From Abditibacteriaceae bacterium (lineage in GTDB: Bacteria; Armatimonadota; Abditibacteriia; Abditibacteriales; Abditibacteriaceae), in the NCBI GenBank assembly GCA_031425655.1, contig JANPJS010000312.1, positions 1-64,000 of the forward strand: a stretch of DNA of 64,000 nucleotides, read 5' to 3'. The translations under genes were made by a program, and so were the position numbers. Under the pieces are notes generated by a model. It searched no databases. It was given only the letters and a program-made list of their open reading frames with translations, and was not told the DNA's origin. Below are positions 46,873 to 63,800 of this stretch, in pieces. Numbering within the stretch: the stretch's first letter is position 1; each line of letters starts with the position of its first letter.

Positions 46873-47033
46873 TTTGCGGCAACCCAAAGAATTTTTTGCT
46901 GTCGGAATCATTCCATTTCGCCCTCTTGACGCTGTTTCGCGCCAAAGCTGTCGAACTATAATAATTTCAGATTTCATTTTTGACGCATTTGTGCTGCATG
47001 AGAGATATGAACAACATCCAAGCTCGGATTTCG

Positions 47034-50000
47034 ATGATGCGACTTCTTGCGAATTTCGCGTTGACGCTGCTGTTTTGCGCGGTCGCTTCGGCCAAGACCG
47101 ATTTTAACCGCGATATTCGCCCGATTCTCTCGAATACGTGTTTCGTTTGCCACGGGCCGGACGAGGCTCAGCGCAAAGCAAAATTACGCTTGGACGTGCG
47201 CGAAAACGCCATCGAGCGCCGCGCTATCGTGCCGGGAAAGCCCGATCAAAGCGAAGCCTTCAAGCGCCTAATTTCCAAAGACCCGGACGAAAAAATGCCG
47301 CCGGCAGAATTTCCTCACACGCTGACGGCGGAGCAAATTTCTACCGTGCGCCAGTGGATTACAGAAGGCGCCGAATACAAGGCGCATTGGGCTTACGAAA
47401 AGCCGCAGCGCGCGGCGCCGCCGGCGGTGAAAAGCACGAAATGGCCGCGCAACGCGATTGACAATTTCATTTTGGCGCGCCTCGAACGCGAAGGATTGCT
47501 GCCACAGCCCGAAGCCGACCGATATTCGCTGATTCGCCGCGTTTCGCTCGATTTAACCGGTCTTCCACCCACGCCCGCCGAAGCCGATGCCTTCGTAGCG
47601 GATAAAGCGCCGGACGCTTATGAGCGTGTCGTTGATCGTTTGCTGGCCACGCCGGCGTTTGGCGAGCATCAAGCGCGTGGTTGGCTCGATTTAGCCCGCT
47701 ACGCCGATTCCGCCGGTTATGCCGACGATCCGTCGCGCTCTATTTGGGCCTACCGCGATTATGTGATTCGCTCCTTCAACGCGAACAAGCCGTTCGACCA
47801 ATTCACGATTGAACAAATCGCCGGAGATTTATTGCCGAATCCAAGCGATGAGCAGCTTATTGCCACAGCCTTTCATCGCAACACGATGACGAATAACGAA
47901 GGCGGCACCGACGACGAAGAGTTTCGCACCGCCGCCGTCGTAGATCGCGTGAACACCACGATGTCGGTGTGGATGGGCACTTCGATGGCCTGCGCGCAGT
48001 GCCACACGCACAAATATGATCCGATTACGCAAACCGAATATTTTCGGATGCTGGCCTTTTTCAACAACACCGCCGACGCCGATAAAAGAGATGAGTCGCC
48101 GCTGCATTCCTTCTTAAGCGAAGAGCAAAAAGCGCAACGCGCGGCGTGGGAAACCGAGCGCGCCGAAGTAGATGCCAAATTGAATAATCCATCGCCTGCC
48201 ATCGTTACAGCGGCAGAAAAATGGGCGCGCGAATTCCCGTTAAACCTTGATTGGCAGCCGTTGAAATCGGCGGCGCAAAAAGCGCAATCCGGCGCGGTGA
48301 TGACGACGCGAGACGACGCTTCGATTATCGTAGCAGGCGGCGCCAAAACGGATAATTACACGCTGGAATTGCCGATTACAGCATCAAAACTCACAGCGCT
48401 GCGACTCGAAACTGTGCCGGACGAGACGCTGCCGGGCAAAGGGCCGGGCCACGCGGCGGGCAATTTCGTGGTGACGCGCGTGCGTGCCTCGCTGCAAACG
48501 CCGCAAGCGCAAGGCGGCCCGAAAGCGCGTTTTGTGCGCATCGAGTTGCCGGGAAAAGATCGGCTTTTGCAAGTCGCCGAAGTGCAGATTTTCAGCGGCA
48601 ATGAAAACATCGCGTTGCGCGGCGCGGCCAGTCAAAGCAGCACTTATGCCGGGGCCGAAGCGAAGCGCGCCATTGACAGCAACACAGCCGGCGAATACGA
48701 CAAAAACTCCGTCGCGCACACCTCAGAAGGCGATGCAAATGTGTGGTGGGAAGTGGATTTAAAGTCGGAGCAAACGCTGGATCGCGTGGTGATCTGGAAC
48801 CGCACCGAACTTCCCGAACGCTTGCAGGGTTTTCGCGTGGTCGCATTGGACGAAAAACGCCAAACGGTTTGGGAAAAATCCGGCAACGAAGCACCGCCGA
48901 TTAGCGCCACCTTTGCACTCAGCGGTGCGCGCGACTTGAAATTTGTGGAAGCCGTCGCCGATTTCACGCAGCCGGAATTCGATGCCAAAGACGTATTGGG
49001 CGCGCCCGGCGACAAGAAAGATACCAAGCGCGGTTGGGCCATCGGAGGTGCGATAGGTCAGGCGCACACGCTTTCTTTGTTGACCGAGCAACCGGTTGAA
49101 GTTCCGGCGGGCGCCCGATTGATCGTGACCATCGAGCAGCAATCGCCATCCGAGAATCACACGTTAGGCCGTTTCCGACTTTCGGCCAGCGCCGACACGC
49201 GCGCTGGGGAAAATCTCCGCACGCCACCGCCGATTTTGGCTGCGCTCGCTGCGCCGCCCGACAAAGCGCGGACAGAAACCCTGAATCGCTACTACACGCG
49301 CCAAATCGCGCCCGAATTGAAACCCGAACGCGAAAAAATTGCTACATTGGCCCGGCAAATCGAAACTTTAGCGCCGACGACTGTGCCGATTTTGCGCGAC
49401 CTCGAAGCCGGGAAGCGCCGCAAAACTCAGGTGCAGATTCGCGGTAGCCACCTGATTCTCGGTGACGAAGTTTCCGAAGGCGTGCCTGTTGCGTTCAATC
49501 CGCTGCCGCAAGGCGCGCCGATGAACCGCTTGACTTTTGCGAATTGGCTGGCAGACGAAAACAACCCGCTCACCGCGCGCGTGATTGCCAACCGCTTTTG
49601 GGAAGATATTTTCGGCATCGGCTTGGTTCGCACCAGCGAGGAATTCGGTGCGCAGGGCGAAATGCCTTCGCATCCCGAATTGCTCGATTACTTGGCGACT
49701 GAACTTGTGAAAAACAAGTGGAATACCAAGCAGTTTTTGAAGATGCTCGTGACTTCGGCGGCTTATCGTCAATCGTCGCGCGTCACGGCGCAATTGCTCG
49801 AAAAAGACCCGGAAAACCGGCTTTTGGCGCGCGGCCCGCGTTTTCGCATGACCGGCGAAACGGTGCGCGATCAAGCGCTTTTTGTCGGCGGATTGCTGTC
49901 GCGCAAAATGTATGGCGTGCCGGTGCGCCCGATTCGCCCTTCGTTCGGCTTAAATGCGGCGTTCGGCGGCGGCCTCGACTGGCAAACCAGCGCCGGTGAA

Positions 50001-50462
50001 GACCGCCACCGCCGCGCGCTTTACACCGAACTGCGCCGCACCAGCCCGTATCCGTCGCTGACGACCTTCGACGCGCCCAACCGCGAGGTTTGCACTGTGC
50101 GTCGTGGGCGAACCAACACGCCTTTGCAAGCACTTGTCACGATGAACGATCCGGTTTTCATCGAAGCGGCGCAATCGCTGGCGCGCCGCATGGTGGCGAT
50201 TGCGGGCACGCCCGCCGAGCGCGTCAATTTCGGGATTCGCGCTTGTCTGACGCGCCCGGCACGCGATAACGAGGTGCAACGCCTCTTGGGTTTACACGCC
50301 GAATCTTTGGCCCTTTACAAAACCAAACCCGAAAAAGCGCGCGACATGGCGACCAATCCCATCGGCGCCGCGCCGCCAAACACCGATATCGCAGACTTGG
50401 CAGCGTGGACAACCGTCGCCAACGTGCTGCTGAACTTGGACGAGACTTTGATGAAACGGTGA
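47034..50462 (+). CDS. PSD1/planctomycete cytochrome c protein (PSCyt1-DUF1549-DUF1553) with a discoidin-like insert
   Basis: DFNRDIRPILS..CFVCHGPD, WLDLARYADS, CAQCHTHKYDP, NPLTARVIANRFW, TNTPLQAL; start uncertain (47007/47034). Confidence 0.92.
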   Translation: MMRLLANFALTLLFCAVASAKTDFNRDIRPILSNTCFVCHGPDEAQRKAKLRLDVRENAIERRAIVPGKPDQSEAFKRLISKDPDEKMPPAEFPHTLTAEQISTVRQWITEGAEYKAHWAYEKPQRAAPPAVKSTKWPRNAIDNFILARLEREGLLPQPEADRYSLIRRVSLDLTGLPPTPAEADAFVADKAPDAYERVVDRLLATPAFGEHQARGWLDLARYADSAGYADDPSRSIWAYRDYVIRSFNANKPFDQFTIEQIAGDLLPNPSDEQLIATAFHRNTMTNNEGGTDDEEFRTAAVVDRVNTTMSVWMGTSMACAQCHTHKYDPITQTEYFRMLAFFNNTADADKRDESPLHSFLSEEQKAQRAAWETERAEVDAKLNNPSPAIVTAAEKWAREFPLNLDWQPLKSAAQKAQSGAVMTTRDDASIIVAGGAKTDNYTLELPITASKLTALRLETVPDETLPGKGPGHAAGNFVVTRVRASLQTPQAQGGPKARFVRIELPGKDRLLQVAEVQIFSGNENIALRGAASQSSTYAGAEAKRAIDSNTAGEYDKNSVAHTSEGDANVWWEVDLKSEQTLDRVVIWNRTELPERLQGFRVVALDEKRQTVWEKSGNEAPPISATFALSGARDLKFVEAVADFTQPEFDAKDVLGAPGDKKDTKRGWAIGGAIGQAHTLSLLTEQPVEVPAGARLIVTIEQQSPSENHTLGRFRLSASADTRAGENLRTPPPILAALAAPPDKARTETLNRYYTRQIAPELKPEREKIATLARQIETLAPTTVPILRDLEAGKRRKTQVQIRGSHLILGDEVSEGVPVAFNPLPQGAPMNRLTFANWLADENNPLTARVIANRFWEDIFGIGLVRTSEEFGAQGEMPSHPELLDYLATELVKNKWNTKQFLKMLVTSAAYRQSSRVTAQLLEKDPENRLLARGPRFRMTGETVRDQALFVGGLLSRKMYGVPVRPIRPSFGLNAAFGGGLDWQTSAGEDRHRRALYTELRRTSPYPSLTTFDAPNREVCTVRRGRTNTPLQALVTMNDPVFIEAAQSLARRMVAIAGTPAERVNFGIRACLTRPARDNEVQRLLGLHAESLALYKTKPEKARDMATNPIGAAPPNTDIADLAAWTTVANVLLNLDETLMKR

Positions 50463-50470
50463 TTTTCAAA

Positions 50471-50569
50471 GGAACACGGATTTGCGCGGAAACGGCCACA
50501 GATTTTCGCAGATCAATCCGAGGAAAAAACCGTGTGAATCCGTGGCCGTTTCCGTGAAACCCGTGTTCC
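50471..50569. repeat. CACGGA-type inverted repeat element
   Basis: ggaacacgg.ttt..gcggaaacggccac ... gtggccgtttccgtgaaacccgtgttcc. Confidence 0.75.
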
Positions 50570-50590
50570 ATTGAAAGTATGAGATTCGAT

Positions 50591-52048
50591 ATGCAACCAG
50601 ACCTCGAAAATTTACAAAACGTCACGCGCCGGCATTTTCTTAAAAGTGCCGGGTGCCTCAGTCTGGGCGCGATTGCGCTTGATGTGCTGCAAGCGCGCCC
50701 CGCTGCCGCCGATGCGATACAAGGCACGATTAATCCGCTGGCGCCGCACAAGCCGCATTTCGCGCCGAAAATTAAGCGCGTCATTTATCTGCATATGTCG
50801 GGCGGGCCGCCGCATCTCGATATTCTCGATTACAAGCCGGAACTGGTCAAACGCGACGGCCAAAACGCGCCCGATGAGTTCGTAAAAGGGAAAAAGTTCG
50901 CCTTCACGAGCGGCACGCCGAAACTGATGGGCACGCCGCGCACCTTTGCGCAGCACGGCAAAAACGGCTTGTGGCTGTCGGACGCCGTGCCGCATTTTCA
51001 AGGCATCGCCGATGAATTGTGCGTGATTAAATCCATGCACACCGACCAGTTCAACCACGCGCCCGCCGAACTGCTTTTATTTACCGGGTCGCCGCGACAA
51101 GGGCGGCCTTCGATGGGTTCGTGGGTGACTTACGGGCTGGGTAGCGAAAACGAAAACTTGCCCGGCTTCGTAGTGCTAATTAGCAGCGGCGTGCAGCCGA
51201 GCGCCGGACAAAGCGCGTGGGGCAGTGGGTTTCTGCCGTCAGTTTTTCAGGGCGTGCAATGCCGCTCGAAAGGCGATCCGGTGCTTTATGTTTCCGACCC
51301 GCCCGGCATGGACAGGGAGCTTCGCCGCAAAACTTTGGACGCGCTGCGCGACCTCAACGCTGAGCAGGGCCGCGAGATGGGCAACCCGGAAACGCAGACG
51401 CGCATCGCGCAATATGAACTGGCGTTTCGGATGCAAACCAGCGTGCCCGAAGTGATGGACATCGCGCGCGAACCGCCCGCAACATTAGAAGCCTACGGCG
51501 CGCAGCCGGGCGAATCGAGCTTCGCCAACAATTGCCTTTTGGCGCGTCGTTTAGTCGAGCAGGGCGTGCGCTTCGTGCATCTTTTCGACTGGGGTTGGGA
51601 TTTTCACGGCACCGGCCCGCAGGAAGACATCCGCGACGGGCTGACCAAAAAAATGACGCGCACCGATAAACCCGTCGCGGCACTGATAAAAGACCTCAAA
51701 CAGCGCGGCCTTCTGGACGACACGTTGATTATTTGGGGCGGAGAATTCGGGCGCACGCCGTTCCGCGAAGGGCGCACGTCGGGCAGCAGCGTTTTGGGCC
51801 GCGACCACTTTCCCGATGCTTTCAGCCTCGTTTTAGCGGGCGGCGGCGTGAAATCCGGCTTTTCCTACGGCCAAACCGACGAATTGGGCTTTTCCGTCGC
51901 CGAAAACCCGGTTCACATCCACGATTTACAAGCCACAATCATGCATTTGCTCGGCTTCGATCACGAAAAGCTGACCTATCGCTTTCAAGGCCGCGACTTC
52001 CGTTTGAGCGATGTTCACGGCCACGTCGTGAAAGACATTCTGGCATAG
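50591..52048 (+). CDS. DUF1501 family Tat-exported protein (usual PSD1 partner)
   Basis: TRRHFL; YLHMSGGP.HLD..DYKP, CLLARRLVEQGVRFV, WGGEFGRTP, GRDH, HIHDLQAT. Confidence 0.93.
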   Translation: MQPDLENLQNVTRRHFLKSAGCLSLGAIALDVLQARPAAADAIQGTINPLAPHKPHFAPKIKRVIYLHMSGGPPHLDILDYKPELVKRDGQNAPDEFVKGKKFAFTSGTPKLMGTPRTFAQHGKNGLWLSDAVPHFQGIADELCVIKSMHTDQFNHAPAELLLFTGSPRQGRPSMGSWVTYGLGSENENLPGFVVLISSGVQPSAGQSAWGSGFLPSVFQGVQCRSKGDPVLYVSDPPGMDRELRRKTLDALRDLNAEQGREMGNPETQTRIAQYELAFRMQTSVPEVMDIAREPPATLEAYGAQPGESSFANNCLLARRLVEQGVRFVHLFDWGWDFHGTGPQEDIRDGLTKKMTRTDKPVAALIKDLKQRGLLDDTLIIWGGEFGRTPFREGRTSGSSVLGRDHFPDAFSLVLAGGGVKSGFSYGQTDELGFSVAENPVHIHDLQATIMHLLGFDHEKLTYRFQGRDFRLSDVHGHVVKDILA

Positions 52049-52053
52049 GCAGA

Positions 52054-52128
52054 TTAACCGCAGAGAACGCAGAGGGCGCAGAGAATTCTTGAAATCCTCT
52101 CTGCGCCCTCTGCGTTCTCTGCGGTTAA
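52054..52128. repeat. Short ACCGCAGAG-family palindrome
   Basis: ttaaccgcagagaacgcagagggcgcagag and its reverse complement, between convergent genes. Confidence 0.85.
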
Positions 52129-52134
52129 ATTATG

Positions 52135-53445
52135 CTACGCGGGTGACAATTCGCGTTCGCGGCGTGCGGTTATTGCGCGGTCTTCGGGCAAGTCGTCGGT
52201 TGGCTCGCCGTAAGGCAGGTCTTCGGGCAGCGGCACGAATTCACGAATCCAAGTCCACAACTGCGAAAAGTCTTTGCCCACATCGCCGGACAAGCAGTCA
52301 GTGATTTGTCCGGCGGCGTCGGGATAGCGTTTGATGACTTGCCCGAACGAGAAATTCGGGTCGTAGAAGGCGTAAACCAACTTCCGCATATTCTCGACGC
52401 TGGCGCGCAGCGTGGCACCGTAAGGTGCGAAGTGCGCGGGCGACAAATCACCTGAAACCAATCCTTCATGCACCGATTCGCCCGCCATCATGCCGCTTTT
52501 CAAGGCCAGCATCACGCCGCTGCTGAAAACCGGGTCGAGAAACGCGAAGGCATCGCCGACGAGCAGCAAACCGGGCGCGGCGCAATGGCGCGAATGGCGC
52601 GAATATTCGCTGGTGATGAAGTAATCGCCGGTGGATTCGCCCAATGCGAGGTGGGTTTTAATCCACTGATTTTCTTCGATTTCGCGCTCGAAAATCGCTT
52701 TGGGATCGCGCACGCCATCGCGCGTGAGATACGGGCCTTCGGCGACGACGCCAACGCTGGTCATCTTATCATGCTGCGGAATGTGCCAGAACCAGCCTTT
52801 GTCGGGCACATAAGCGACCGTTGTGTCGCCCTCGTCAATGCCTTCGCCGCGCTGTGAGCCTTTGTAATACGTCCAGACCGCGATTTTATTGAGATACGGG
52901 TCTTGCATCCGCCAGCCCTGACGCACGGCAGAAAACGCTTCTTTTCCGGTGCAGTCGAGCGTCATTTGGGCGCGATATTCCGTCACGTTGCCGTCTTTAT
53001 CCAGCGCTTGCGCGCCGGCCACGCGCCCGTCTTCCTTAATGAGCGCGGTGACTTTGGTTTCTTCGCGCACATGGGCGCCTTTTTCGCGCGCGTTGTCGAG
53101 CAGCATCTGGTCGAACTCAGAGCGCAAGACCTGCCACGTTTGCGCGATGGTTTCGCGGTCGTAGCGGTTGAAAAAGTAAAACGGCTGCGAACGCTTGCCA
53201 TCCGGCGACACGAAAGTCACGCTGTATTTCTTGACGAAGTTTGAGGCCTTCATCTTGGGAATCATGCCGATGCGCTTGAGCGGCTCGAACGTGAAGGGAA
53301 TCAGTGATTCGCCGATGTGATAGCGCGGAAATTTTTCGCGCTCTAAAACCACGACATTGTGGCCGTATTCGGCCAAAATCGCCGCTGAGCAGGAGCCGGC
53401 GGGGCCGCCGCCGATAATCAGAACGTCGCAAGTGTGTGTGTCCAT
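52135..53445 (-). CDS. Flavin-dependent halogenase family protein
   Basis: GGGPAG, FPRYHIGES, GWFWHIP (WxWxIP), GDAFAFLDPVFSSG. Confidence 0.85.
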   Translation of the reverse strand: MDTHTCDVLIIGGGPAGSCSAAILAEYGHNVVVLEREKFPRYHIGESLIPFTFEPLKRIGMIPKMKASNFVKKYSVTFVSPDGKRSQPFYFFNRYDRETIAQTWQVLRSEFDQMLLDNAREKGAHVREETKVTALIKEDGRVAGAQALDKDGNVTEYRAQMTLDCTGKEAFSAVRQGWRMQDPYLNKIAVWTYYKGSQRGEGIDEGDTTVAYVPDKGWFWHIPQHDKMTSVGVVAEGPYLTRDGVRDPKAIFEREIEENQWIKTHLALGESTGDYFITSEYSRHSRHCAAPGLLLVGDAFAFLDPVFSSGVMLALKSGMMAGESVHEGLVSGDLSPAHFAPYGATLRASVENMRKLVYAFYDPNFSFGQVIKRYPDAAGQITDCLSGDVGKDFSQLWTWIREFVPLPEDLPYGEPTDDLPEDRAITARRERELSPA

Positions 53446-53706
53446 GAGTCAGAAGTTTAACCCTTTTCTGAAATAATCTCACGCAGAGATGCTTGAAGTA
53501 GACAAATGTTCCGTGCCTTTGTCTCATTCATGACTCATTTTTGTAAAATTTCTCGTAAGCGCAAAGGCACGCATGAGCAAAGGAGGTTGAAGGAATTGCG
53601 GCGCGCGAGTTTTCATAAGACCTTTTTCTTCTTTGGGGCCTTGTGTTTAAGTTCAATGCTCCGCGTTGAGCGGCGTATACTTTGAGCGACGTTGATTCCG
53701 CCATAA

Positions 53707-55206
53707 ATGGAACGAAGCATGAGCGCATTTTTTACACCGCTGAACGACGAGCCGATTATTGACGAGCAAGACCTGCTTGGTCGCCGGACGCTGCTGAACG
53801 AAATGAAACACGCCATCGCGGAAGGCACGCCGCCGCACGTCTTCGGAATTCATGGCGACTGGGGTTCGGGTAAGACGAGTTTTCTCCGGCAATTGCGTTA
53901 TGAACTCACCGGCGAACGAGTGCTTGGCCCGCACGAAAAGTTGACCGGCAAACAAGAAAAGCAATCGAAGGATTTCGCTACGACAAACGCGCACGTCACT
54001 ACGATTTGGTTTGAAGCGTGGCGCTATCAGAATGAATCGGCGCCGATTGTCGCGCTGCTGCATGAAATCCGTTCGCAGATGACATGGCGCACTCATGCGG
54101 CTGCGCAAAGTAAGCAGCATTTGCAGAAGTATGCTGAAGTGGCGATTCGTGGCGGTTTACTGCAGATGGAGCAGGTCACGAAGATGATCGGCTTTCAAGC
54201 GTCTAAAGTGCAGGACGCGGGAGAAGCGTGGGAGCGCGAGCATCTTGCGGTGACGTTGCCCTCGGATCAGATTCGCGCTCTGCTGGATGAAGTCTTGGGC
54301 CAGTTGCTGCCCTCAACCGGCAATGAAGAATGGGATGATAAGCGCCGTCTCGTGGTATTTATTGACGATCTTGACCGTTGCGAGGCGGAAACCGCATTTC
54401 GTTTGCTGGAAGGCATTAAGATTTATTTAAATCTCACCCGCTGCGTCTTCGTGTTGGGACTCAATCAGCGGGAAATTCAGCGTGCGATAGCCAAGTTCAT
54501 TCCGTCCTATAAGAAAGAGTCGGACGAAGGCGAAGTGCTGATTCGCGCGCAGGAATACATGGAGAAGCTTTGTGGCAACATTCAGCACTTGCCGCTGCCA
54601 ACCCCCAGCGCGCAGGCGAAGATTGTCGGGCATTTTCTATCGAATGTCGCCAAAGAGCCGCGGGCCAAAGACGTGAACGCGGAAATCGTGCGTCTGATTG
54701 GCGTAGAACCGTCTCTGCCGGCTAATCCGCGTCGCATTAAAGGGCTGTGTAACACCATCGCGCGGCTCGTGATGCGCCGCCTGCATAATTTGACCAATGG
54801 CGAACCGATTCCCATCGCGGAAGCGCGTGTTGTGCTGCTGGTGGCGAGCCTTTATCAGTTTCATCCGGCGATTTATCGTGTGCTGGCCAGTGACCTGCGT
54901 TTCATTGAGGTTCTAAAACGCAAGGCGCGCGAAGTAAAGCCTGCCGGAGATGCCAAATCGCCGACGATTCACGCTGTTTTGGACGACCTGCAACTAACCT
55001 TTCACCAGCCGCCCAGCGCCGAAAGCTCCGTGACGCCTGCAAGCGCGCCGCCGTCGCCCGAATCGCTGTTTGCCGACCCGGCTTATGGAAACGTGCTGCA
55101 CTGCCAACGCTTTCTCGCCGCTGTCGGCGCCGATGAAATCACCGAACAGCAGTTGCGTCCCTACGTGTCGGGAAATGAAAACGATGCCGCAAAATTCACC
55201 ATCTAA
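53707..55206 (+). CDS. KAP family P-loop NTPase (soluble)
   Basis: D.LGR, GIHGDWGSGKTS, IWFEAWRY, VVFIDDLDRC, LEGIK, EYMEK, NPRRIK. Confidence 0.92.
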   Translation: MERSMSAFFTPLNDEPIIDEQDLLGRRTLLNEMKHAIAEGTPPHVFGIHGDWGSGKTSFLRQLRYELTGERVLGPHEKLTGKQEKQSKDFATTNAHVTTIWFEAWRYQNESAPIVALLHEIRSQMTWRTHAAAQSKQHLQKYAEVAIRGGLLQMEQVTKMIGFQASKVQDAGEAWEREHLAVTLPSDQIRALLDEVLGQLLPSTGNEEWDDKRRLVVFIDDLDRCEAETAFRLLEGIKIYLNLTRCVFVLGLNQREIQRAIAKFIPSYKKESDEGEVLIRAQEYMEKLCGNIQHLPLPTPSAQAKIVGHFLSNVAKEPRAKDVNAEIVRLIGVEPSLPANPRRIKGLCNTIARLVMRRLHNLTNGEPIPIAEARVVLLVASLYQFHPAIYRVLASDLRFIEVLKRKAREVKPAGDAKSPTIHAVLDDLQLTFHQPPSAESSVTPASAPPSPESLFADPAYGNVLHCQRFLAAVGADEITEQQLRPYVSGNENDAAKFTI

Positions 55207-57454
55207 ATCGCCAACAATTGAATCCATTCCGGCGCCGCAAAAGCCCGACACCGGCGCGTTTCTCGACACCTTCAACGACAAAACGCTGCTGGCCTATTTT
55301 CGGGCAGTGCACGACTGGCACGGCTATATCAAGTTTCTGGGGTTGCCGGCGCTGATTGAAACCAGCCGCGATGTGCCGCTGCGGAACCTTTATGTCGAGC
55401 CGCGCTTTGCGGCGCAACACCTGACGCCGGAGAGCTTCGACGACGTGGAGAAAGCGCCGGAAACGGTGGCGGCGATTGAGGCTTTAAAGCAGCATCAGCG
55501 GCTGGTGCTGCTCGGCGATCCGGGGTCGGGCAAGTCTACGCTGGTCAACTGGCTGGCCGAGTGTTTGACGTTCCCGCTCGCCACGTCGGTGACGAGCGCA
55601 CTGGGGCCGTTGGTGCCCATTCCGCTGATTCTGCGCGAGTTGCAGATTGACGCCTCGATAACGTGGGACGCGCTGATGAAGCAGTTTTTGGAGCGTCCCG
55701 TCGCCAAGAGTCTGAAGGAGAACCCCGAAACCCTCGAAACGCTGCTGCAAAGTGGGCAGGCGTTCGTGATGCTCGACGGCATTGACGAAATCGCCAGCGT
55801 GGAAACGCGCCAAGCGTTGCGCGATGCGGTGCATGATGGTTTTCGGCGTTACCTGCGCGCTCAGTGGCTGCTCACCTCGCGGGTGGTGGGCTATGATGAG
55901 GCTTCGTTCAATTTTTCCATCTGGCCGAGTTGGACGAGACAAGGGGAGACTATCCATTGGCGACTAAAAGAAATAGGTCTCCTCTACGCTGCGCCGTTTA
56001 ACGACGCACAAATCGAGCAGTTTGCGCGCAATTGGTATCATCAGCACGAGAGTAATCCGCATTTGGCGGAGCAAAGCCCGGCGGAGTTTGTCGCGGTCGT
56101 CGCGGCGAATCAGGGCATACGGCGGCTGGCGCGCATTCCAAATCTGCTGACGTTTATGGCGTTGATCCATCGCATTCATGCCGACCTGCCGGATGGCCGT
56201 GCGCTGCTTTACGCGAAAGTCTCGGAGGCGTATCTCAATACCATTGATTCGTTTCGCAAACTGCCGCTGCCGGTCAACTTCAGCTTAGCCGACAAAGAGC
56301 GTTGGCTGGCAGTCGTCGGCTTTCGGATGCAAATGCGCCGCTACGAGGCGACATTAAAAGGCGAGGCAGCGCAAAGCGAAATCTTAGTGCCGGGCGCCGA
56401 GGTGCGGCAATGGCTGGCGGAGGCGATGCGTCCCAAAGTGGGCGACGAAGCGGACAAGACGGCGGCGGCGCTGCTCGATTACATCGGACGGCGCAGCGGA
56501 CTGCTGCTGCCGCGCGGTGAAGACCTCTTCGCCTTCCTGCACCTGACGTTTCAGGAATACTTCGCGGCGCTTTTCATCAAAGAGAAGATCAAGTCGCTGA
56601 CGTGGATGAGGCGCAACACGGTGACGAACGACGACGACTCGGACACCGCGCTGTCGCGTTTGCGCGACTACGCCAACTCGACGGTGTGGCAGGAAACGCT
56701 GCTGCTGCTCTTCGAGAGTCTTTCCGAAGAAGGCGAATGGCCCGACGACCTGACGCGCCTGCTCTTTGAAAACGACTTCGACCTGGCCGAGCCGCAGCCG
56801 TTGAAACAGCGGTTTGTTTGGAATGAAACCCGGCGCAAACATGCTCATAACGACCAAATGCAAACGCTGGTGCTGCTGGCAGCGATTTCGGTAGACCCGC
56901 ACAGCGGCCTCAGCGCCGGACTGCGCCCCGGCGTCTGGCGCGCCTGCTGGCAATGGGAGTTGGAACGGCAGAAAGAAACGGGAGTAGATACGCCCATCGT
57001 CGAGAATCAAGTAGCGTGTGCGTTGATGGCCCCGGTCACCTCCCTGCCGCAGGTGATGACGCAGTTTGCACAAGCGGCGCAGTTGTCACAGCCGGACTGC
57101 TTGTGGCTTGGCTACTGTGTAGGTTTGAATGACGTGACGCCGTTGGCGGCTTTGACCAACCTGTATTACCTCGTTTTGAGCGACACGGCGGTGAGAGACG
57201 TGAGGCCGTTGGCGGCTCTGACCAATCTGTATTACCTCGATTTGAGCAATACGGCGGTGAGAGACGTGAGGCCGTTAGCGGCGCTGACCGAGCTGGGCTA
57301 CCTCTCTTTGAGAAACACGGCGGTGAGCGACGTGACGCCATTGGCGGCGCTGACCAATCTGAAACTTCTCACTTTGAGCGACACGGCGGTGAGCGAGGCT
57401 GACGTGGCGGCGTTAAAGAAGAAGTTGCCGCACACCCAGATTAGCGGGCCGTAG
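55175..57454 (+). CDS. NACHT NTPase with C-terminal leucine-rich repeats (bacterial NLR-like)
   Basis: LLGDPGSGKST, FVMLDGIDE, LTSR, IPNLL, RRSGLL, FAFLHLTFQEYFAA; four complete 22-aa LRRs; start 55175 or 55184 overlaps the KAP gene end. Confidence 0.92.
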   Translation: MKTMPQNSPSKSPTIESIPAPQKPDTGAFLDTFNDKTLLAYFRAVHDWHGYIKFLGLPALIETSRDVPLRNLYVEPRFAAQHLTPESFDDVEKAPETVAAIEALKQHQRLVLLGDPGSGKSTLVNWLAECLTFPLATSVTSALGPLVPIPLILRELQIDASITWDALMKQFLERPVAKSLKENPETLETLLQSGQAFVMLDGIDEIASVETRQALRDAVHDGFRRYLRAQWLLTSRVVGYDEASFNFSIWPSWTRQGETIHWRLKEIGLLYAAPFNDAQIEQFARNWYHQHESNPHLAEQSPAEFVAVVAANQGIRRLARIPNLLTFMALIHRIHADLPDGRALLYAKVSEAYLNTIDSFRKLPLPVNFSLADKERWLAVVGFRMQMRRYEATLKGEAAQSEILVPGAEVRQWLAEAMRPKVGDEADKTAAALLDYIGRRSGLLLPRGEDLFAFLHLTFQEYFAALFIKEKIKSLTWMRRNTVTNDDDSDTALSRLRDYANSTVWQETLLLLFESLSEEGEWPDDLTRLLFENDFDLAEPQPLKQRFVWNETRRKHAHNDQMQTLVLLAAISVDPHSGLSAGLRPGVWRACWQWELERQKETGVDTPIVENQVACALMAPVTSLPQVMTQFAQAAQLSQPDCLWLGYCVGLNDVTPLAALTNLYYLVLSDTAVRDVRPLAALTNLYYLDLSNTAVRDVRPLAALTELGYLSLRNTAVSDVTPLAALTNLKLLTLSDTAVSEADVAALKKKLPHTQISGP
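57131..57394 (+). repeat. Four 66 bp tandem repeats encoding LRRs
   Basis: Units start at 57131, 57197, 57263 and 57329 (gacgtga.gcc.tt.gcggc..tgacc). Confidence 0.92.
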
Positions 57455-57459
57455 CCGAG

Positions 57460-57612
57460 GCGAAAATGCGTCCGGCAGCCGCGAAAATCGCGCTGACACG
57501 CACGCAATTGATGCTGACAGCCGCGAAAACGAGAGTGGCGCCCGCGAAAAGCGTGCTGACACTTACGAAATGGTGTCGGCTGCGGCAAAAATGATGGTGG
57601 CAGCGACAAAAT
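57460..57612. repeat. Degenerate 21 nt periodic repeat
   Basis: (g/a)cgaaaa-like words at 57460, 57481, 57502, 57523, 57544, 57565, 57585 and 57606. Confidence 0.55.
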
Positions 57613-57827
57613 GGGCTTTTGACGAGCGCCTGATGACCCGATTTCGCAAAGACCACGGCGAATTCGTGACCGCCTAACAGGGCGCCCGCGTCATCATAGA
57701 CCGAGCCGGCACCGTCAAAACCAAGCTCGCGCCTGCCACGCCGTAGACATGGAGACACGAAAAAAGGAGACACGGAAATCATTCCGCGTCTCCTTTTCTT
57801 TTCACTGACATCGAAGCGCAATTGAAT

Positions 57828-57875
57828 GTAGGGGCACGCTACGGCGTGCCCGGACACGCCATAGCGTGTCGCTAC
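57828..57875. repeat. GTAG-type REP pair
   Basis: gtaggggcacgctacggcgtgccc followed by ggacacgccatagcgtgtcgctac. Confidence 0.7.
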
Positions 57876-57879
57876 GAAA

Positions 57880-60800
57880 TCAATCTTTCACGCTGAGCCG
57901 CGTTTCGTCGGAGATTGCGCGGACTTCCGGTGCATACATCGCGTAGCCGTTGGTCGGCAAAGCGTGGAAGCGGCCCGGAATCTCGGCGCGCATTCGGTAG
58001 CGAAGCACGCGCACGCCTTGCGGCAGATGATCCACGAACAGGGCGACTTTGGTGTCGCGCAGTTCGACGTTGCTGCACAAGCCGTCGCCCCACGCAGAGC
58101 CGCTTCGCAAATCAACGGCTTCAAGGCCCGCCGCTTTCATGTCCTCGAACACCAGATACGAATAATCGTTGTCGGCATCGAGCGTGAGTTCGACTTCGAT
58201 TAAATCGCTGCTGACAAGCGTTGCGCCGTCTTTGATTTCGGTGCGCGTGAACTCTTGCTTCGGCGGCTCTGCCGGGCGCGGACGCGGGAACGGTGGCATA
58301 ATGCCGCGTCCGCCCACCGCGATTTTGGCGGACGCAACCGCCGGTGCCGTGGTCGTCGCGGCGCCTGCGCCTTGCTCCGGTTTCACTTCGGGATTGCGCG
58401 TCAACTTGAAGTAGCGGCGTTTGATCGCAATGGCGTTGCCCGACGCTTTGATCGGCTCTTCGAGCGAGAAGTATTCGCTGGCCGCGCTCCAATACACGTT
58501 GCCGCGTCCCTGCTTCTCAATCGTCACTTTGTTGGCGCCGTCTGCAAGGAACAAGTCGCCGCTGATGAAGCGATTATCGAAGAACAGCATATTGTCGGCG
58601 GTGACGCGATAGCTGCGCTTGATGCGGTCGTTCAGCGTGACGGTCAGCGTGTAATCCACATCCAGTTCTTTGTTGACGCGCACGTAATCGTTCAAGGCGC
58701 TGACGGCCATCGCGGTGGCTTTGGTGCTGCGCCAGTGGTTGCCGCGCGACTTGGTGACCAGCCATTTCATGCTGCGGTCAACCATCGCGTTTTTCGGGTC
58801 AATCTGCAAAAAGGCTTTGAGCGCCCAGGCGTTGGTTTCCACGTCGTCGTTCCACCAATACCACCATTGATTCGCCATTTTCCAGCGCGCGGTGCCGTTG
58901 GCGGCGTCCACGAGCGCGGTGTTTTCCAGATTGCGAACCATCACGCCGGCTTTGTCTTTTTCGCCGCTATTGGAAAGCGCCAACGCCAGCAACGCTTGCG
59001 AATACGGCGTCAGGCGTTCGCGCTGCGTGAATAAGCGGCCCGCCACGACTTTCTGCGCTGCATCGCCCATTTTGCCACGCAGCGACAGCGCGTGCGCCAT
59101 CCACGTTAAAAGGTGCAGATTGTCTTCGTCCGTCATCTGTTTTTCGAGATAAGCGAAGCCGCGATTCAAAACGTCGTCGCGCACCTTCACTTCGGCGGCT
59201 TTGGCCGTCGCCAATCCCCACATCACATAGGCAGTCATGTATTCGTCGCTCTGCGAGGAGCCGGGCCACCAGCCCCAGCCGCCGTCGCCGCGCTGCATTC
59301 CGTAAAGGCGGTCGAGGCCTTCTTTGGTCATCTGATTGACGACAGCTTGGTCGTAAACCGGATTCGAGCCGCGATGCGATGTCCACCACATCCGCGAAGC
59401 CATTTGTTGCAAATCGCGCGAATTCGGCATTCCCGTCGGATAGGTGTAGCCGGTATTTTTCACGCGCTCGCCGATGGGCGCGGCTTTGGCTTCGGCTTCG
59501 TAGGCTTGCGCGCGGGCTTTGAGCGTGGCCAAGTTGACGCCGCTATCGGACAGCGTTTTTTGCACGAGAACCGTCGGCATAAAGCGCGACAGCGTTTGCT
59601 CGACGCAGCCATATGGATAATCGGCCAAATAGGGCAGGGCGTCCATCATCGTGGCCGCGAGGCTCGGATTAAGCTGCACGTTGAGCGAAGTCGCGCCGAA
59701 ACGACGCTCTTTGGGCAGATTTATCGTCGCCGTGGCCGAATTCACGCCGTTTTTGAGGACGCCGCTTTGCGATGCGAAACGCTGGATACCATGCACCAAA
59801 ACCGGGAAATTCATCTTGACGGCGTCGGCGTCTTCGTCGGTTTGCGCGGTCATTTGCACATGGGTGTCGCCGTCGCGCGTGACGTTGACAACCCAGTTCA
59901 CGCGCGCTTCTTCGCCCGCTTTGACTTCGATAAAGCCGGACGCGGCTTTAAACATTTCGCCCGTTGCGAGGTTGGTTTCGGGTTTGGCTTCGACTTCCAA
60001 ACCGCTGCCCAAATCGAGCGCGATTTTGACGCGCTTGGCCGACTTCAAATAGTTGTGGACGTTGGCTGTTAGCACAACTTGATCGCGCTCTACGAAGAAG
60101 CGCGGCGCCTGCAAGCGCACGAGCAGGTTTTTCTTGGTTTCCACGTCGTTTTCGCCCGCGCCGACTTGCACATTTGGCGTGACGCCGCGCGCCGTGGCGT
60201 GCCATTGCGTCAGCGAATCCGGGAAAGTGACTTCGACTTTAGCTGTGCCGCCTTCGGTGACGACGGCGGGCGACCAAAACGCGGTTTCGGCGAAGTTGGA
60301 GCGCACTTGCGCCGTGGCGAGTTGGGTTTCGCCTGCTTGCCGTTGGTCTTTTTTGTCTCCAGCCGATTCTTTGCGGGCTGCTTTAGCCATCGTTTCCATC
60401 GGCGCTCCGCCGAGTCCGCCGGCAGCCGAAGCCATCGGCGCGGAGGCTGGCATGGCCATCGCGCTATTCGCGGACACCGCGCCGTCGGCCAGCATAAAGT
60501 TCTCGGCGCCGCGCATTCCGAGGCGCCGATTGTAGCGCCCGTAGTAACCAAACTGGCCTGGCGGCAGGTTCAACTGGCCCAGTTCGTCGGGGAATTCCCA
60601 GCCGTGCTGCTCGTAATTCTGGTATTTCTGGTCGTCTTCGGTGTGGCCCTGCGGCTGGCCCGAACGGTGCGAATCGAGGTTGACCGAGTTGGCGCGGCGC
60701 TCGCCGTAATAAAACAAGCGAATGTCCGGCGCGTAGTCTTTTTGAATGTAAAACAGGCTGGCGTCAATCATCGCCACGCTGACTTCGGCGCGGGCCGGAT

Positions 60801-63800
60801 TGCCTTTCCAGTCTTTCGCAGCGATGGTGAAAGTGCCTTTTTCGCCCGGTTTGTATTCGCTTTTGTCGCCTTTTACGGAAATATCGAGGAACTGCTTGGT
60901 CGGCGGCACGAAAACTTCCTGCTGCGCCTGATACACCTGAAAATTCTTGACCATCGCGGCGGCGATGGCGAAGTTCGGGACGTGCCTGTGTTCAATCGGA
61001 ATCGTGATTTCCTTGCTTTTACCTTCGATGAAAATCACGTCGCGCCGCAAAATATCGCCGCCCGACTCCTGTGTCAGCAAAACCGTGCTGCCCGGCGAAT
61101 CGGCGATGAGCAGCACTTTGGCGGTGTCGCCTTCTTCATAATTGCGCTTATCAAGCACAATCGTCACGCCTTGCAAGCGGAACTGCGTGTTATTGAGGCC
61201 CGGCCCGGCGACCCAGATCGTTGTCGAGCCGACGACTTTGTTGCCCCAATCGTCCGTGCTTTCCCACGCGATGCGAAAATGCCCGGCGTTGTCGGTCGGC
61301 CATGTCCAGATGGCGCGGCCTTTCTCGTCGGTGCGAATTGCTTCTTCGAAAATCTTTTCTTCTTTGTTATCGGGCAGCAGCTTGTAAACCACCATTTTGC
61401 CCGCCGTGCTTTGCGGTTTGTCGTTGGCGTCCTGGGTTACGATTTCGATTTGCACACGGTCGCCGCTGATGTAATAACCCTGTTTGGCGTTGAGAAACGC
61501 GAAATATTGCTGATTCGCCACGCGCACTTCGCCTTGTCCTTCAATCGTGCGGCGGCTGGAATCGGTCACTTCGGCTTCGATGGTGTAGAGCGGGTTGGAA
61601 TAGCGCTGCCACCAATCGGTCTCGGATACCTCTTCGCGCTTCGTCGCAAAGCTCACTTCGGCGTTACCTTGCGCGTCGGTTTTGACCGTTCCTTCTTTGA
61701 TGATTTCGCCCGCGCCTTCGCCGCCGATGTTGCGCCGTCCCGTGTTGTAATCGCCGACGCCCCAGTAGGAATAAAGCCACGCGAACGGCTGCGGGAAGCG
61801 ATAATTGGCCCACCAACGGCTGCGGCGCACGGTATATTTCACGGTCGCATTCGGGACGGGCGAGCCGAAATAATACTTCGCGTTGATTTTCGCGGCGACG
61901 GTTTCGCCGGGCTTGACGGCGTTGTCGGGCGCGTCTACCGTGACGATAAATTCGGGGCGCTTATATTCCTCGACGCGAAAGCGATTGGCGCCATGCGCCG
62001 CGACGTTTTGTTTGGTTTGCGGAACGTGAGCCTGCACCGTGTATTCGCCGAGTGGTGTTTCCATCGGCAGCATGAATTCGCCGTTGACGGTGCCGAATTC
62101 TGAAGTCGTCAGCTTCTTGGTGAAGATGTTCTCGCCCTTCGGATTTGTTACCGTGACGTTGACTTCGACGCCCACCATCGGCGCTTGATCGCCTCCGGCC
62201 ACGCGCTTCGTGAGAATCTGGCGAAAATAGACTTTTTGATTCGGGCGATAAACCGGGCGGTCGGTGTAGGAATAAACTTTGGCTTCTTCACGATTGCCGC
62301 CGTAATAGCCGCCGTAATAATTGCTGCCGGTCAGCGCGTAACGGTTGCCGACCCACGCGAAAGCCTGCACTTGCTGCGAGTTGCGATTCGGGCCGCGCAC
62401 TAATTTTTTCTCGAAGAAGCCGACTTCGCCGCTGGTGCCTTTAGCCAAGTCAACGTGGTTGGCGCTGTTTTCCCAGTAAGTCTCTTTGAGAATCACGTTC
62501 GCGCCGTTAATCGGCGCGCCGCTGCGCGCGTCGGCGACAAAAGCCAGAGCTTCGTCGCGGTCGGTTTTCTTGAGAATCGCAAGGTCGCTGATGAGCAAAA
62601 CGCGCGCGGTGCGGATGCCGTCGCCTTCGGCGACAATCGCGTAGGCGCCGAGTTCTTTCAGCGGCGTGTCAATGGTTTCGTTGACGCCCTGATAATCGCC
62701 CTTGTCTTTGGAATTAAACGTCCATTCCCCCGCTTTTTCGCCGAAATACTGGCGCGCGTTGGCAATGCTGCCGAAGTTGCGATCCCACTCGGTGAATTGA
62801 AGATTCGGCTGGTTCAGTTTGGCGTCCTGCGCGATGATTTTCTCAAGCTGCACGCGATAAGCGGTGAACTTCACGCTTTTTAAATTGCGCGTATTGACCG
62901 TGATTTTCGCGGCTTCGCCGGGCTTTTGCTGGCCCATCGTGTCTAATGAGATTTCGCGCCGCGTAATCTGCTGGATTTGCGCTCTGGCGTCGCTCGTCCA
63001 CTTCGATTTGGGGAATTTATCCAGTAATTCGCGGTAAGCGGCCAGCGACTTGACTTGATCGCCGTTTTGCTGATGCGTTTGCGCGATGAGAATGAGAACG
63101 CGGTCGGCAATCGGGTCGCGCGGGAACTTTTCAATCACTTCGCGCCAAATGGGAATCGCTTCGAGATGATCGAAGGGATATTCGCGCGTGATATAAGTCT
63201 TTTTATCGGGGTCATACCAGTTGGCCCAGCCTTGCATTTGCTGGCGATAGGCGCGCACGAACATCCCTTTGGCCAGCAGCGAAAGAACGGTATCGTGCTT
63301 GTCGGCGCCTTGATCTAAAGCGCGGATTTCGTTGTAAAGATAAAGAACTTTGGTCGGCAGATTCCATTTTGGGTCGTAAGGCAAGCTTTGGTCAACGGTT
63401 TCGTCGAGCTTTTTGCGCCCGTCTTTCCACGCTTTTTCGAGCGCCTCGATGAATTTGCTTTGCTCGCGCGTCGGCAAATAAGCGGCGAGATCGAAATTGA
63501 GATCGTTTTCTTCATCCCACGCCATCGGGTGAATCGCCACCAAATAGCGACGGGTTTTGGCCCATTCGCGCTCTTGCTGCGCCTGCACTTTAGCTTTCTC
63601 GAAATAGTCGAGCGTGGCCTGCGCGTCTTCTTCGCCGAGATAAACCTGCACCGGCTTTTCGGCGCCTTCGACTTTAGGATAATCCTGCCCGCGATAGGTT
63701 TTGCCGCCGACTTTGTAGCCTTGATGCGGCACGACGGTGTAAAGCCGGCCCAGCCAGTAATAAATGCGCGCTTTCCACTCGGTTTTGCCGAGCAGAGTGT

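Follow-up and report, generated by a model that had tools for sequence, protein, structure and literature searches.

A linked pair of genes for a soluble KAP-family NTPase and an effector-less NACHT-LRR protein: a candidate two-NTPase defence module of the NLR type

Bacterial proteins related to the nucleotide-binding leucine-rich repeat (NLR) receptors have been described as single polypeptides that join a sensor, a switch and an effector. What, then, is the role of an NLR-like protein that has no effector, whether it shed one or never possessed it, and is locked to a second ATPase? Such a protein is encoded in the stretch of DNA analysed here, called the window, which comprises 64,000 nucleotides (nt) of contig JANPJS010000312.1 from an Abditibacteriaceae bacterium. 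Gene 1 (53707..55206, + strand) encodes a soluble KAP-family P-loop nucleoside triphosphatase (NTPase) of 499 residues if translated from 53707, or of 495 residues from 53719. Gene 2 (55184..57454, + strand) encodes a 756-residue protein that consists of a NACHT module, a winged-helix domain (WHD) and leucine-rich repeats (LRR) and belongs to the signal transduction ATPases with numerous domains (STAND), but has no effector domain. Judged from sequence comparison and structure prediction, the two genes probably constitute an obligate, co-expressed two-NTPase module, an NLR-type anti-phage (conflict) system in which the NACHT-LRR protein would be the receptor and the KAP protein would provide the output.

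The product of gene 1 matches the Pfam family KAP_NTPase over profile positions 18-289 of 293 with a score of 103.8 bits against a cut-off of 20 (1.3e-29). Its Walker A motif, GDWGSGKTS (53854..53880, + strand), and its Walker B motif, LVVFIDDLDRC (54349..54381, + strand), are intact. The residues G, W, G, G, K, T and S of the former and D216, D217, D219, R220 and C221 of the latter (numbered on the 495-residue form) are invariant in 37 relatives. Many classical KAP members have transmembrane helices inserted in the NTPase domain. The present protein belongs to the family as defined by Pfam, but lacks this membrane insert. It is free of transmembrane stretches (its Kyte-Doolittle mean over 19 residues does not exceed 1.41), and its AlphaFold2 (AF2) model shows a soluble helical hairpin where the classical members have their membrane helices. 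Both properties had been recognized in an earlier, sequence-only reading of this DNA, which described a soluble KAP ATPase with intact Walker motifs.

The AF2 model of the KAP protein, with a predicted local distance difference test (pLDDT) score of 83.7, is most similar to RdrA among solved folds (Z-scores of 16.5 and 16.3, with up to 328 residues aligned). The next solved folds are ORC/Cdc6, TnsC and BrxC. The KAP family profile also matches RdrA at the amino acid level (8fnu, 5.5e-05). The family is large, of about 1,000 clusters at 50% identity: 1,016 representatives of the subfamily were found at E<=1e-30 among 1.84 billion such clusters. The 150 best representatives are at most 559 residues long.

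The product of gene 2 contains a NACHT domain (Pfam; 36.4 bits, cut-off 26.7) with a Walker A motif, GDPGSGKST (55514..55540, + strand), in which G111, D112, P113, G114, G116 and K117 are invariant in 36 relatives. The Walker B motif, FVMLDGIDE (55763..55789, + strand), has D198, G199, D201 and E202 invariant in the same relatives and carries the D[GAS]hDE signature, by which NACHT modules are defined in the available text of a preprint on bacterial NACHT (bNACHT) proteins (10.1101/2022.07.19.500537). The WHD contains the motif FxHLxFQE with its conserved histidine, and here too F451, H453, Q457 and E458 are invariant in 36 relatives. The LRR domain occupies approximately residues 636-756 (57089..57451, + strand), as delineated by the strands of the model and by matches to LRR families (LRR_4 of Pfam, 41.1 bits against a cut-off of 27, 1.9e-10, and an internalin-type LRR). 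It has six predicted β strands between residues 639 and 754, five of which are spaced 22 residues apart from residue 662 onwards. The corresponding DNA is a tandem array (57131-57393) with a period of 66 bp, 4.0 copies and 83% matches according to Tandem Repeats Finder.

The AF2 model of the NACHT-LRR protein has a pLDDT of 87.6. Its best solved folds are NLRC4 (E 6.6e-15), NOD2, NLRP3 and NAIP, with about 800 columns aligned. The match to these animal NLRs extends over the whole chain, from the nucleotide-binding domain (NBD) through HD1, WHD and HD2 to the LRR, and so bears out the NLR architecture that had been proposed from the NACHT and LRR parts. The template modelling (TM) scores are modest, however, at 0.25-0.41, and the sequence identity is 12-15%. 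Furthermore, the bacterial protein has no CARD, PYD or BIR domain, and its partner is a KAP ATPase, not an adaptor or a caspase.

The N-terminal 110 residues that precede the NACHT Walker A motif (55184..55513, + strand) comprise about 13 residues modelled with low confidence followed by a conserved pre-NACHT segment. In an alignment of relatives this segment has the consensus FxDPFxDxxLL...WHGYIRFLGLP...LYVEP. It is modelled with a pLDDT of 94-96 at residues 21-40 and 85 at residues 41-50. No Pfam, NCBIfam or PADLOC domain was found in the 110 residues at E<=0.01, and neither protein of the pair matched a nuclease, TIR, SIR2 or caspase family with the same databases and threshold, just as the sequence-only reading had stated for the NACHT protein. 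An atlas look-up of the N-terminus returned unnamed clusters scoring up to 0.91 and NNH families at 0.77-0.80, which serve as leads only. Thus the protein qualifies as a member of the NACHT clade and has the repeats of an NLR, but lacks the N-terminal effector.

The start codons of both genes are consistent with homologous proteins. Translation of KAP from M5 (nt 53719, 495 residues) agrees with the protein on record and with the two closest homologues. Gene 2 lies in a long open reading frame (ORF; 55070..57454, + strand), within which the ATG at 55184 gives the 756-residue protein on record. The two closest homologues (proteins P0004 and P0005) have N-termini that align with its own, MPQNSPSKSPTIESIPAPQKPD. 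Because the NACHT gene starts at ATG 55184 and the KAP gene ends with TAA at 55204-55206, the 3' end of the first and the 5' end of the second overlap by 23 nt (55184..55206, + strand). An alternative ATG at 55175 would extend the overlap to 32 nt, and the earlier estimate of 23-32 nt therefore stands. In a genome of the same genus (G002) the NACHT gene begins with GTG, 3 nt beyond the KAP stop, and a GGAGG sequence is located 8 nt upstream. The junctions in 21 related loci range from -41 to +22 nt if the longest ORFs are assumed, and 7 of the 21 are 4-nt overlaps.

The linkage of the two genes was examined from both sides. Around KAP relatives, 80 genome loci (numbered with the prefix L, as are all loci below) were collected and all six-frame ORFs were scored with custom profiles for KAP, for the NACHT module (residues 1-620) and for the LRR. 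A KAP was considered close if its family-profile score was at least 177 bits or if a frameshift had split it (L008 and L012), and distant if it scored at most 162 bits. In each of the 26 loci with a close KAP, the KAP gene is immediately followed by a NACHT-module gene in the same orientation, whereas this is so in none of the 54 loci with a distant one. In one of the 26 (L014) the NACHT match is weaker, 105 bits, and its frame opens inside the KAP gene and runs to the contig end. Four of 22 KAP loci on viral contigs have a close KAP, and all four have the NACHT gene downstream. From the other side, 79 metagenome loci around NACHT relatives were analysed. The NACHT protein scores at least 270 bits in 11 of these; upstream sequence is available in nine, and KAP is immediately upstream in eight of the nine. 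The sole exception is L124, where the NACHT gene is frameshifted and the 1.3 kb of existing upstream sequence contain no KAP. Two lower-scoring NACHT loci also have KAP (L132 and L133), and their NACHT genes end at the contig end. The 66 weaker NACHT relatives have no KAP, and about 43 of them have at least 1.4 kb of upstream sequence.

Protein and genome searches gave the same picture. At least 23 contigs are apparently common to the best 120 NACHT matches and the best 120 KAP matches. The homologues on them include neighbours with adjacent locus tags, in a metagenome-assembled genome (MAG) of Phycisphaerae, and two proteins on one contig of Haloferula sargassicola. Of 61 genomes of relatives, four encode KAP (E<=1e-40), and it is these four that encode a close NACHT (E<=1e-64). 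In G002 and G041 the two genes are neighbours, and in G001 contig ends separate them; the genome from which the window comes has one copy of the pair. The conserved linkage for which a neighbourhood comparison had been suggested is present.

The two proteins also diverge together. Over 29 pairs, the KAP and NACHT-module distances are correlated with a Mantel r of 0.95, a value reached in none of 2000 permutations, although kinship inflates such numbers; the broken or cut loci L008, L012, L014 and L025 were left out of this comparison. The correlation is 0.82 for pairs with a KAP distance above 0.55, and the nearest neighbour is the same for KAP and NACHT in 20 of the 29 pairs. Clearly, the two genes move and diverge as one unit. 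The alternative, that two unrelated genes lie side by side by chance, is refuted by the linkage counts, and the co-divergence and the overlapping junctions leave it with a negligible probability. The two-way linkage, the tight or overlapping junctions and the co-divergence support the view that the two genes are one functional unit.

No third conserved gene was detected in an all-against-all BLAST comparison of the flanking ORFs, in which otherwise only antisense artefacts recur. A biosynthetic arginine decarboxylase follows the NACHT-LRR gene in two gammaproteobacterial loci (L011, 10673-12556, and L025, 4206-6179). This recurrence is probably synteny between relatives and not part of the system.

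Single-chain fusions of KAP and NACHT, in the same order as in the gene pair, are found in Nonomuraea (L033, 5434-8304, and protein P0243, the latter being the single distant match in a search for longer proteins). These fusions resemble membrane receptors: a signal or transmembrane segment is followed by about 130 residues between hydrophobic stretches, a transmembrane helix, KAP and NACHT. They belong to another NACHT clade, and they support a general affinity between KAP and NACHT domains, but not for the soluble KAP/NACHT-LRR family.

The C-terminal part of the NACHT protein is the least constant part of the pair. Fifteen of the 26 linked NACHT partners have an LRR and the other 11 have different C-terminal regions, so that KAP and NACHT form a constant core and the C-terminal part is exchangeable. 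Nine of the 11 regions without LRR were scanned and contain no Pfam repeat family; the remaining two end at contig ends. Within closely related copies it is the LRR that changes. Three related prophages (L094-L096) are 90-94% identical in the integrase, 83-91% in KAP and 82-90% in the NACHT core, but only 34-56% in the LRR. Nonsynonymous divergence (dN), the only informative component of dN/dS in this comparison by domain, is 0.37-0.53 in the LRR, compared to 0.05-0.11 in KAP and 0.04-0.05 in the integrase. A β-meander insert in the NBD (residues ~244-269, window 55913-55990) differs in length and sequence even between P0004 and P0005, and lies within positions 200-400, where the prophage NACHT alleles vary more. 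This insert may be a second variable surface.

The pair is widely but unevenly distributed. Paired loci occur in Gamma- and Betaproteobacteria, Magnetococcales, a 'Deltaproteobacteria' MAG, Verrucomicrobiota, Bacteroidota, Acidobacteriota, Nitrospirota and Campylobacterota which, together with the window, makes about eight phyla. Nevertheless, the pair is present in only 4 of the 61 genomes of relatives and in none of 23 genomes of the same family outside the genus. A comparison with an empty site was attempted using a genome of the same genus that lacks the pair (G003), in which three flanking genes lie on three contigs, so that no insertion or deletion could be inferred.

Some copies are carried by prophages. 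The three related prophages mentioned above, whose integrases are 90-94% identical, have the gene order integrase, KAP, NACHT-LRR and a PrtN-like excisionase. A further locus (L097) contains P2-like tail genes (gpU and gpD), an endolysin, an Rz-spanin, KAP, NACHT-LRR and an integrase remnant. Integrase-adjacent hotspots of P2-like prophages carry defence systems, according to the available text of PMC9122126.

The chromosomal surroundings were scanned for 136 of 145 flanking ORFs, nine being left out by size. Full-length PADLOC matches next to the pair include a type III restriction endonuclease or methyltransferase in L001, L002 and L003, PDC-S01 in L001, PDC-S70 in L004 and an HNH enzyme in L007. 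L022 encodes a Ser/Thr kinase whose kinase domain matches the PD-T4-6 model, and the match of an L006 exonuclease to PDC-S48 is partial. Pfam adds HipA, BrnT, PIN, resolvase, integrase and IS200 transposase genes, and toxin-antitoxin or mobility genes are found in L002, L006, L008, L010, L015 and L019. Several other PADLOC matches were discounted as housekeeping cross-matches: ClpB with PDC-M37B, ABC and RecF proteins with mad3, MoaA with pVip, a sigma-54 activator with RtcR, TatD with QatD, and ThiF with E1-E2 models. The chromosomal defence neighbours are no more than suggestive of a defence role.

Broken copies occur as well. The KAP gene is split by a frameshift in Cognatilysobacter bugurensis (L008, 5899-7392) and in L012 (5920-7403), and the copy in L124 (948-3924) has a frameshifted NACHT gene with no KAP upstream. 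These copies show turnover of the pair.

Is the pair one of the defence systems that have already been named? Among known systems, those closest to the NACHT-LRR protein are the bNACHT proteins of Kibby et al. (10.1101/2022.07.19.500537), and especially bNACHT16, which bears LRRs. As far as the available text of that preprint goes, they share with it the D[GAS]hDE signature, the WHD histidine and C-terminal repeats of the antigen-receptor type, and also have a patchy distribution like that of accessory genes. They are described there, however, as single genes with an N-terminal effector, whereas the present NACHT is effector-less and has an obligate upstream KAP. The same text places bNACHT genes only rarely in operons, which are poorly conserved, and does not mention 'KAP'. 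None of the PADLOC NLR (bNACHT) models matches the NACHT protein at E<=0.01, the only matches being weak P-loop ones to IetA at E >= 1e-4. With the NCBIfam model EruA the score is 34.9 bits, where the cut-off is 1000.

On the KAP side, the closest solved fold, RdrA (8fnu, 8fnt and 8hr8), is the KAP-annotated ring ATPase of RADAR, likewise a two-gene defence system. RdrA, however, has about 800-900 residues and works with the deaminase RdrB, whereas the present KAP has 495 residues and a NACHT-LRR partner. There is no deaminase in the flanks within the window, and the 136 flanking ORFs contain no RdrB-type adenosine deaminase, but only a RibD-type cytidine-deaminase domain (L020). The best PADLOC matches of gene 1 are the defence-linked KAP-family NTPases PDC-S20, QatA and PifA, which cover the NTPase core only. 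The best model, PDC-S20 (7.1e-25), matches over profile positions 17-236 of 464, and its catalogue entry consists of one gene without a NACHT partner. QatA of NCBIfam reaches 76 bits against a cut-off of 600, and the QatB, QatC and QatD partners are absent beside the pair.

Thus the pair attains neither the cut-off nor the gene set of any named system tested, and the partial match to PDC-S20 is left over. That the pair would prove to be PDC-S20, Qat, Pif, RADAR or a catalogued bNACHT is very unlikely: the KAP matches speak for it, but all of them are partial, the partner genes of Qat and RADAR are missing, and the bNACHT preprint, in its available text, points to genes that stand mostly alone. 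The earlier statement that this is no recognized system holds for the PADLOC and NCBIfam models, with the PDC-S20 match as a reservation. In the literature, no description of a KAP-then-NACHT operon was found in a search that did not extend to the bNACHT supplements and final journal version. The available text of PMC8195603 treats KAP only as an NTPase able to displace the STAND module, and that of PMC10907252 only as an alternative NTPase in targets of diversity-generating retroelements.

How might the two proteins work together? The variable C-terminal LRR of the NACHT protein, or the other C-termini in distant relatives, would bind a ligand derived from the invader. The ligand would free the NACHT-WHD switch, allowing ATP binding and oligomerization as in NLRC4 and NLRP3. 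The KAP ATPase, which may be produced in a fixed ratio by virtue of the overlapping junction, would then be recruited or released, and would execute or gate the response, leading to growth arrest or abortive infection. As gene 2 lacks an effector domain, the KAP protein is proposed to take over the output. Two NLRs act as sensor and helper in NAIP-NLRC4 and in the paired NLRs of plants. The likeness lies in two NTPases of the STAND/AAA+ initiator kind occurring together, one of them with a variable sensor; but the second protein here is of the KAP family, has no repeats and is not an NLR, and its contact with the first is hypothetical. The sequence-only reading had likewise cast the LRR-NACHT protein as the sensor and the KAP protein as its partner or effector. 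That the two genes are one functional unit is supported, as is the defence-like context in other genomes; the assignment of the two roles is our inference.

A number of points weigh against a defence module of this kind. The killing step is a guess, because neither protein has a recognizable toxic or enzymatic effector. No adaptor domain common to the KAP C-terminus and the NACHT N-terminus was found (BLASTP gave nothing and hhalign a probability of 1.4%). Synonymous divergence (dS) among the prophage alleles is saturated (proportion of synonymous differences, pS, 0.57-0.82), and positive selection on the LRR is thus inseparable from relaxed constraint. The prophage contexts number only two independent ones, since the three prophages with integrase and excisionase are of one lineage. 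The KAP protein has no match in GenBank phages at E<=1e-20 or in PLSDB plasmids at E<=1e-30. The pair is flanked by housekeeping genes in most of the genome loci scanned; instances are dnaA-dnaN-recF-gyrB (L022), secA and lpxC (L009), a cbb3 oxidase operon (L016) and priA (L024). The neighbours in the window are metabolic or structural; neither a defence gene nor a defence island was found among them with Pfam and PADLOC.

The housekeeping surroundings of many copies, that in the window included, suit a different explanation, in which the pair is a STAND/KAP regulatory device for non-immune signalling or housekeeping, responding for example to an internal ligand. Some bacterial STAND proteins are ordinary regulators of the MalT or AfsR type, and they provide a precedent. 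However, Pfam and NCBIfam show no DNA-binding domain, or other output domain, in either protein. Moreover, the pair is patchy among relatives and yet spans about eight phyla, its flanks are never conserved, it is carried by prophages, its LRR is hypervariable and it has decayed in L008, L012 and L124. An ordinary regulatory pair is therefore considered unlikely.

If the pair is a defence module, the roles of the two proteins may still be reversed or shared. The KAP protein could be a regulator, a loader, a guard or an RdrA-like sensor and the NACHT oligomer the executor, acting for instance through sequestration of a phage protein, or by way of the conserved 100 residues at its N-terminus. This segment, being conserved and confidently modelled, could carry a function of its own, but it matches no known effector family. 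From the KAP side, RdrA, the closest solved relative, serves RADAR as the regulatory or sensing ATPase and not as the effector, in the available text of PMC9994260, and relatives of the ORC/Cdc6, TnsC and BrxC type are loaders and matchmakers. On the other hand, the variable part, which marks a sensor, is on the NACHT protein and not on KAP. The reversed assignment is thus less probable than that of the NACHT-LRR protein as receptor and the KAP protein as output, but is better placed than a housekeeping role.

Evidence for a physical contact between receptor and output was sought in two ways, by a complex prediction and by a search for a common adaptor domain or motif. A complex prediction for full-length KAP with NACHT residues 1-500 gave a score of 0.01, which weighs neither for nor against binding. 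A segment of the form F-x-D-P-[AF]-x-[GD]-x-x-[LF] is conserved both in KAP (residues ~452-468 of the 495-residue form) and in NACHT (residues ~25-41). The ungapped profile test of this FxDP segment is weak, its best score being reached by 2-8 of 300 shuffles depending on the window size and that of the alignment by 8 of 300, and homology of the two segments is not statistically supported. NACHT relatives that lack KAP mostly match the profile only from position 30 or later. In NLR/effector pairs coupled through EAD (effector-associated domain) or amyloid motifs, reportedly described by Kaur et al. and by Dyrka et al., the same short motif is carried on the N-terminus of the NLR and on the neighbouring protein.

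With the NACHT-LRR protein as receptor and the KAP protein as output, a more general scheme can be put forward tentatively. The pair might represent a widespread, previously undescribed class of bacterial NLRs, in which an effector-less receptor, made up of NACHT and a hypervariable LRR or other repeats, signals to a dedicated ring-forming KAP of the RdrA/ORC type. The ATP-driven activity of this KAP would constitute the output, no part of the system having a nuclease, TIR, protease or pore-forming domain, and the FxDP segment would be a possible coupling device. If the pair does defend against phages, it would show an NLR that passes its signal to a separate NTPase, a bacterial counterpart of the sensor/helper arrangements of plants and animals, and it would pose the question of how two ATPases without a toxin domain stop an infection. 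Culturable carriers, such as Pseudomonas putida QH1 (L006), Alteromonas sp. a30 and Pseudoduganella sp. LjRoot289, and also the prophage copies, make the pair directly testable.

In the window the pair lies between two unrelated genes on the minus strand, in agreement with the earlier description. The upstream neighbour (52135-53445, - strand) encodes a Trp-halogenase-like, flavin adenine dinucleotide-dependent flavoenzyme. The downstream neighbour (57880-63999, - strand) is a giant gene for an alpha-2-macroglobulin (A2M)-like protein of more than 2,000 residues with a tetratricopeptide repeat (TPR) segment. Further upstream (46980-52048) are a PSCyt1/PSCyt2/PSD1 protein and its DUF1501 partner, a pair typical of planctomycetes. 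These genes and the A2M gene are ordinary planctomycete genes.

The upstream intergenic region (53446..53706, + strand), between the divergent halogenase-like gene and the KAP start, presumably holds the promoter of the pair. A scan for promoters and terminators around the pair gave nothing that exceeded shuffled controls. The GC content is 0.52-0.54 over the upstream spacer and the KAP gene (window 53000-55000), compared to 0.57-0.60 on both sides and in the NACHT gene.

The downstream intergenic region (57455..57879, no strand assigned) contains a terminator-like hairpin at 57762-57797, which is common to the pair and the convergent A2M gene. This inverted repeat (I3) has 16-nt arms that are 94% complementary and is flanked by an A-run and a T-run, the T-run following it. 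It has the look of a bidirectional terminator placed between the NACHT-LRR gene and the A2M gene that converges on it. Directly 3' of the NACHT-LRR stop, at 57460-57610, there is a degenerate array of GCGAAAA-type boxes, which start at 57460, 57481, 57523 and 57544 and, more weakly, at 57586 and 57607, with spacings of 21 or 42 nt. No convincing ORF runs across the array; a 138-residue minus-strand ORF (57441-57857) has no family match. The array is possibly a set of binding sites or a decayed small repeat gene.

Closer to the A2M gene, at 57812-57875, are nested palindromes that resemble repetitive extragenic palindromic (REP) elements, GGGGCACGC..GCGTGCCC and GGACACGC..GCGTGTC. The REP-like element of about 50 nt has matches on both strands of many contigs of the same-genus genome G002, and similar short repeat pieces occur in the window at ~50525-50580 and 52052-52134.

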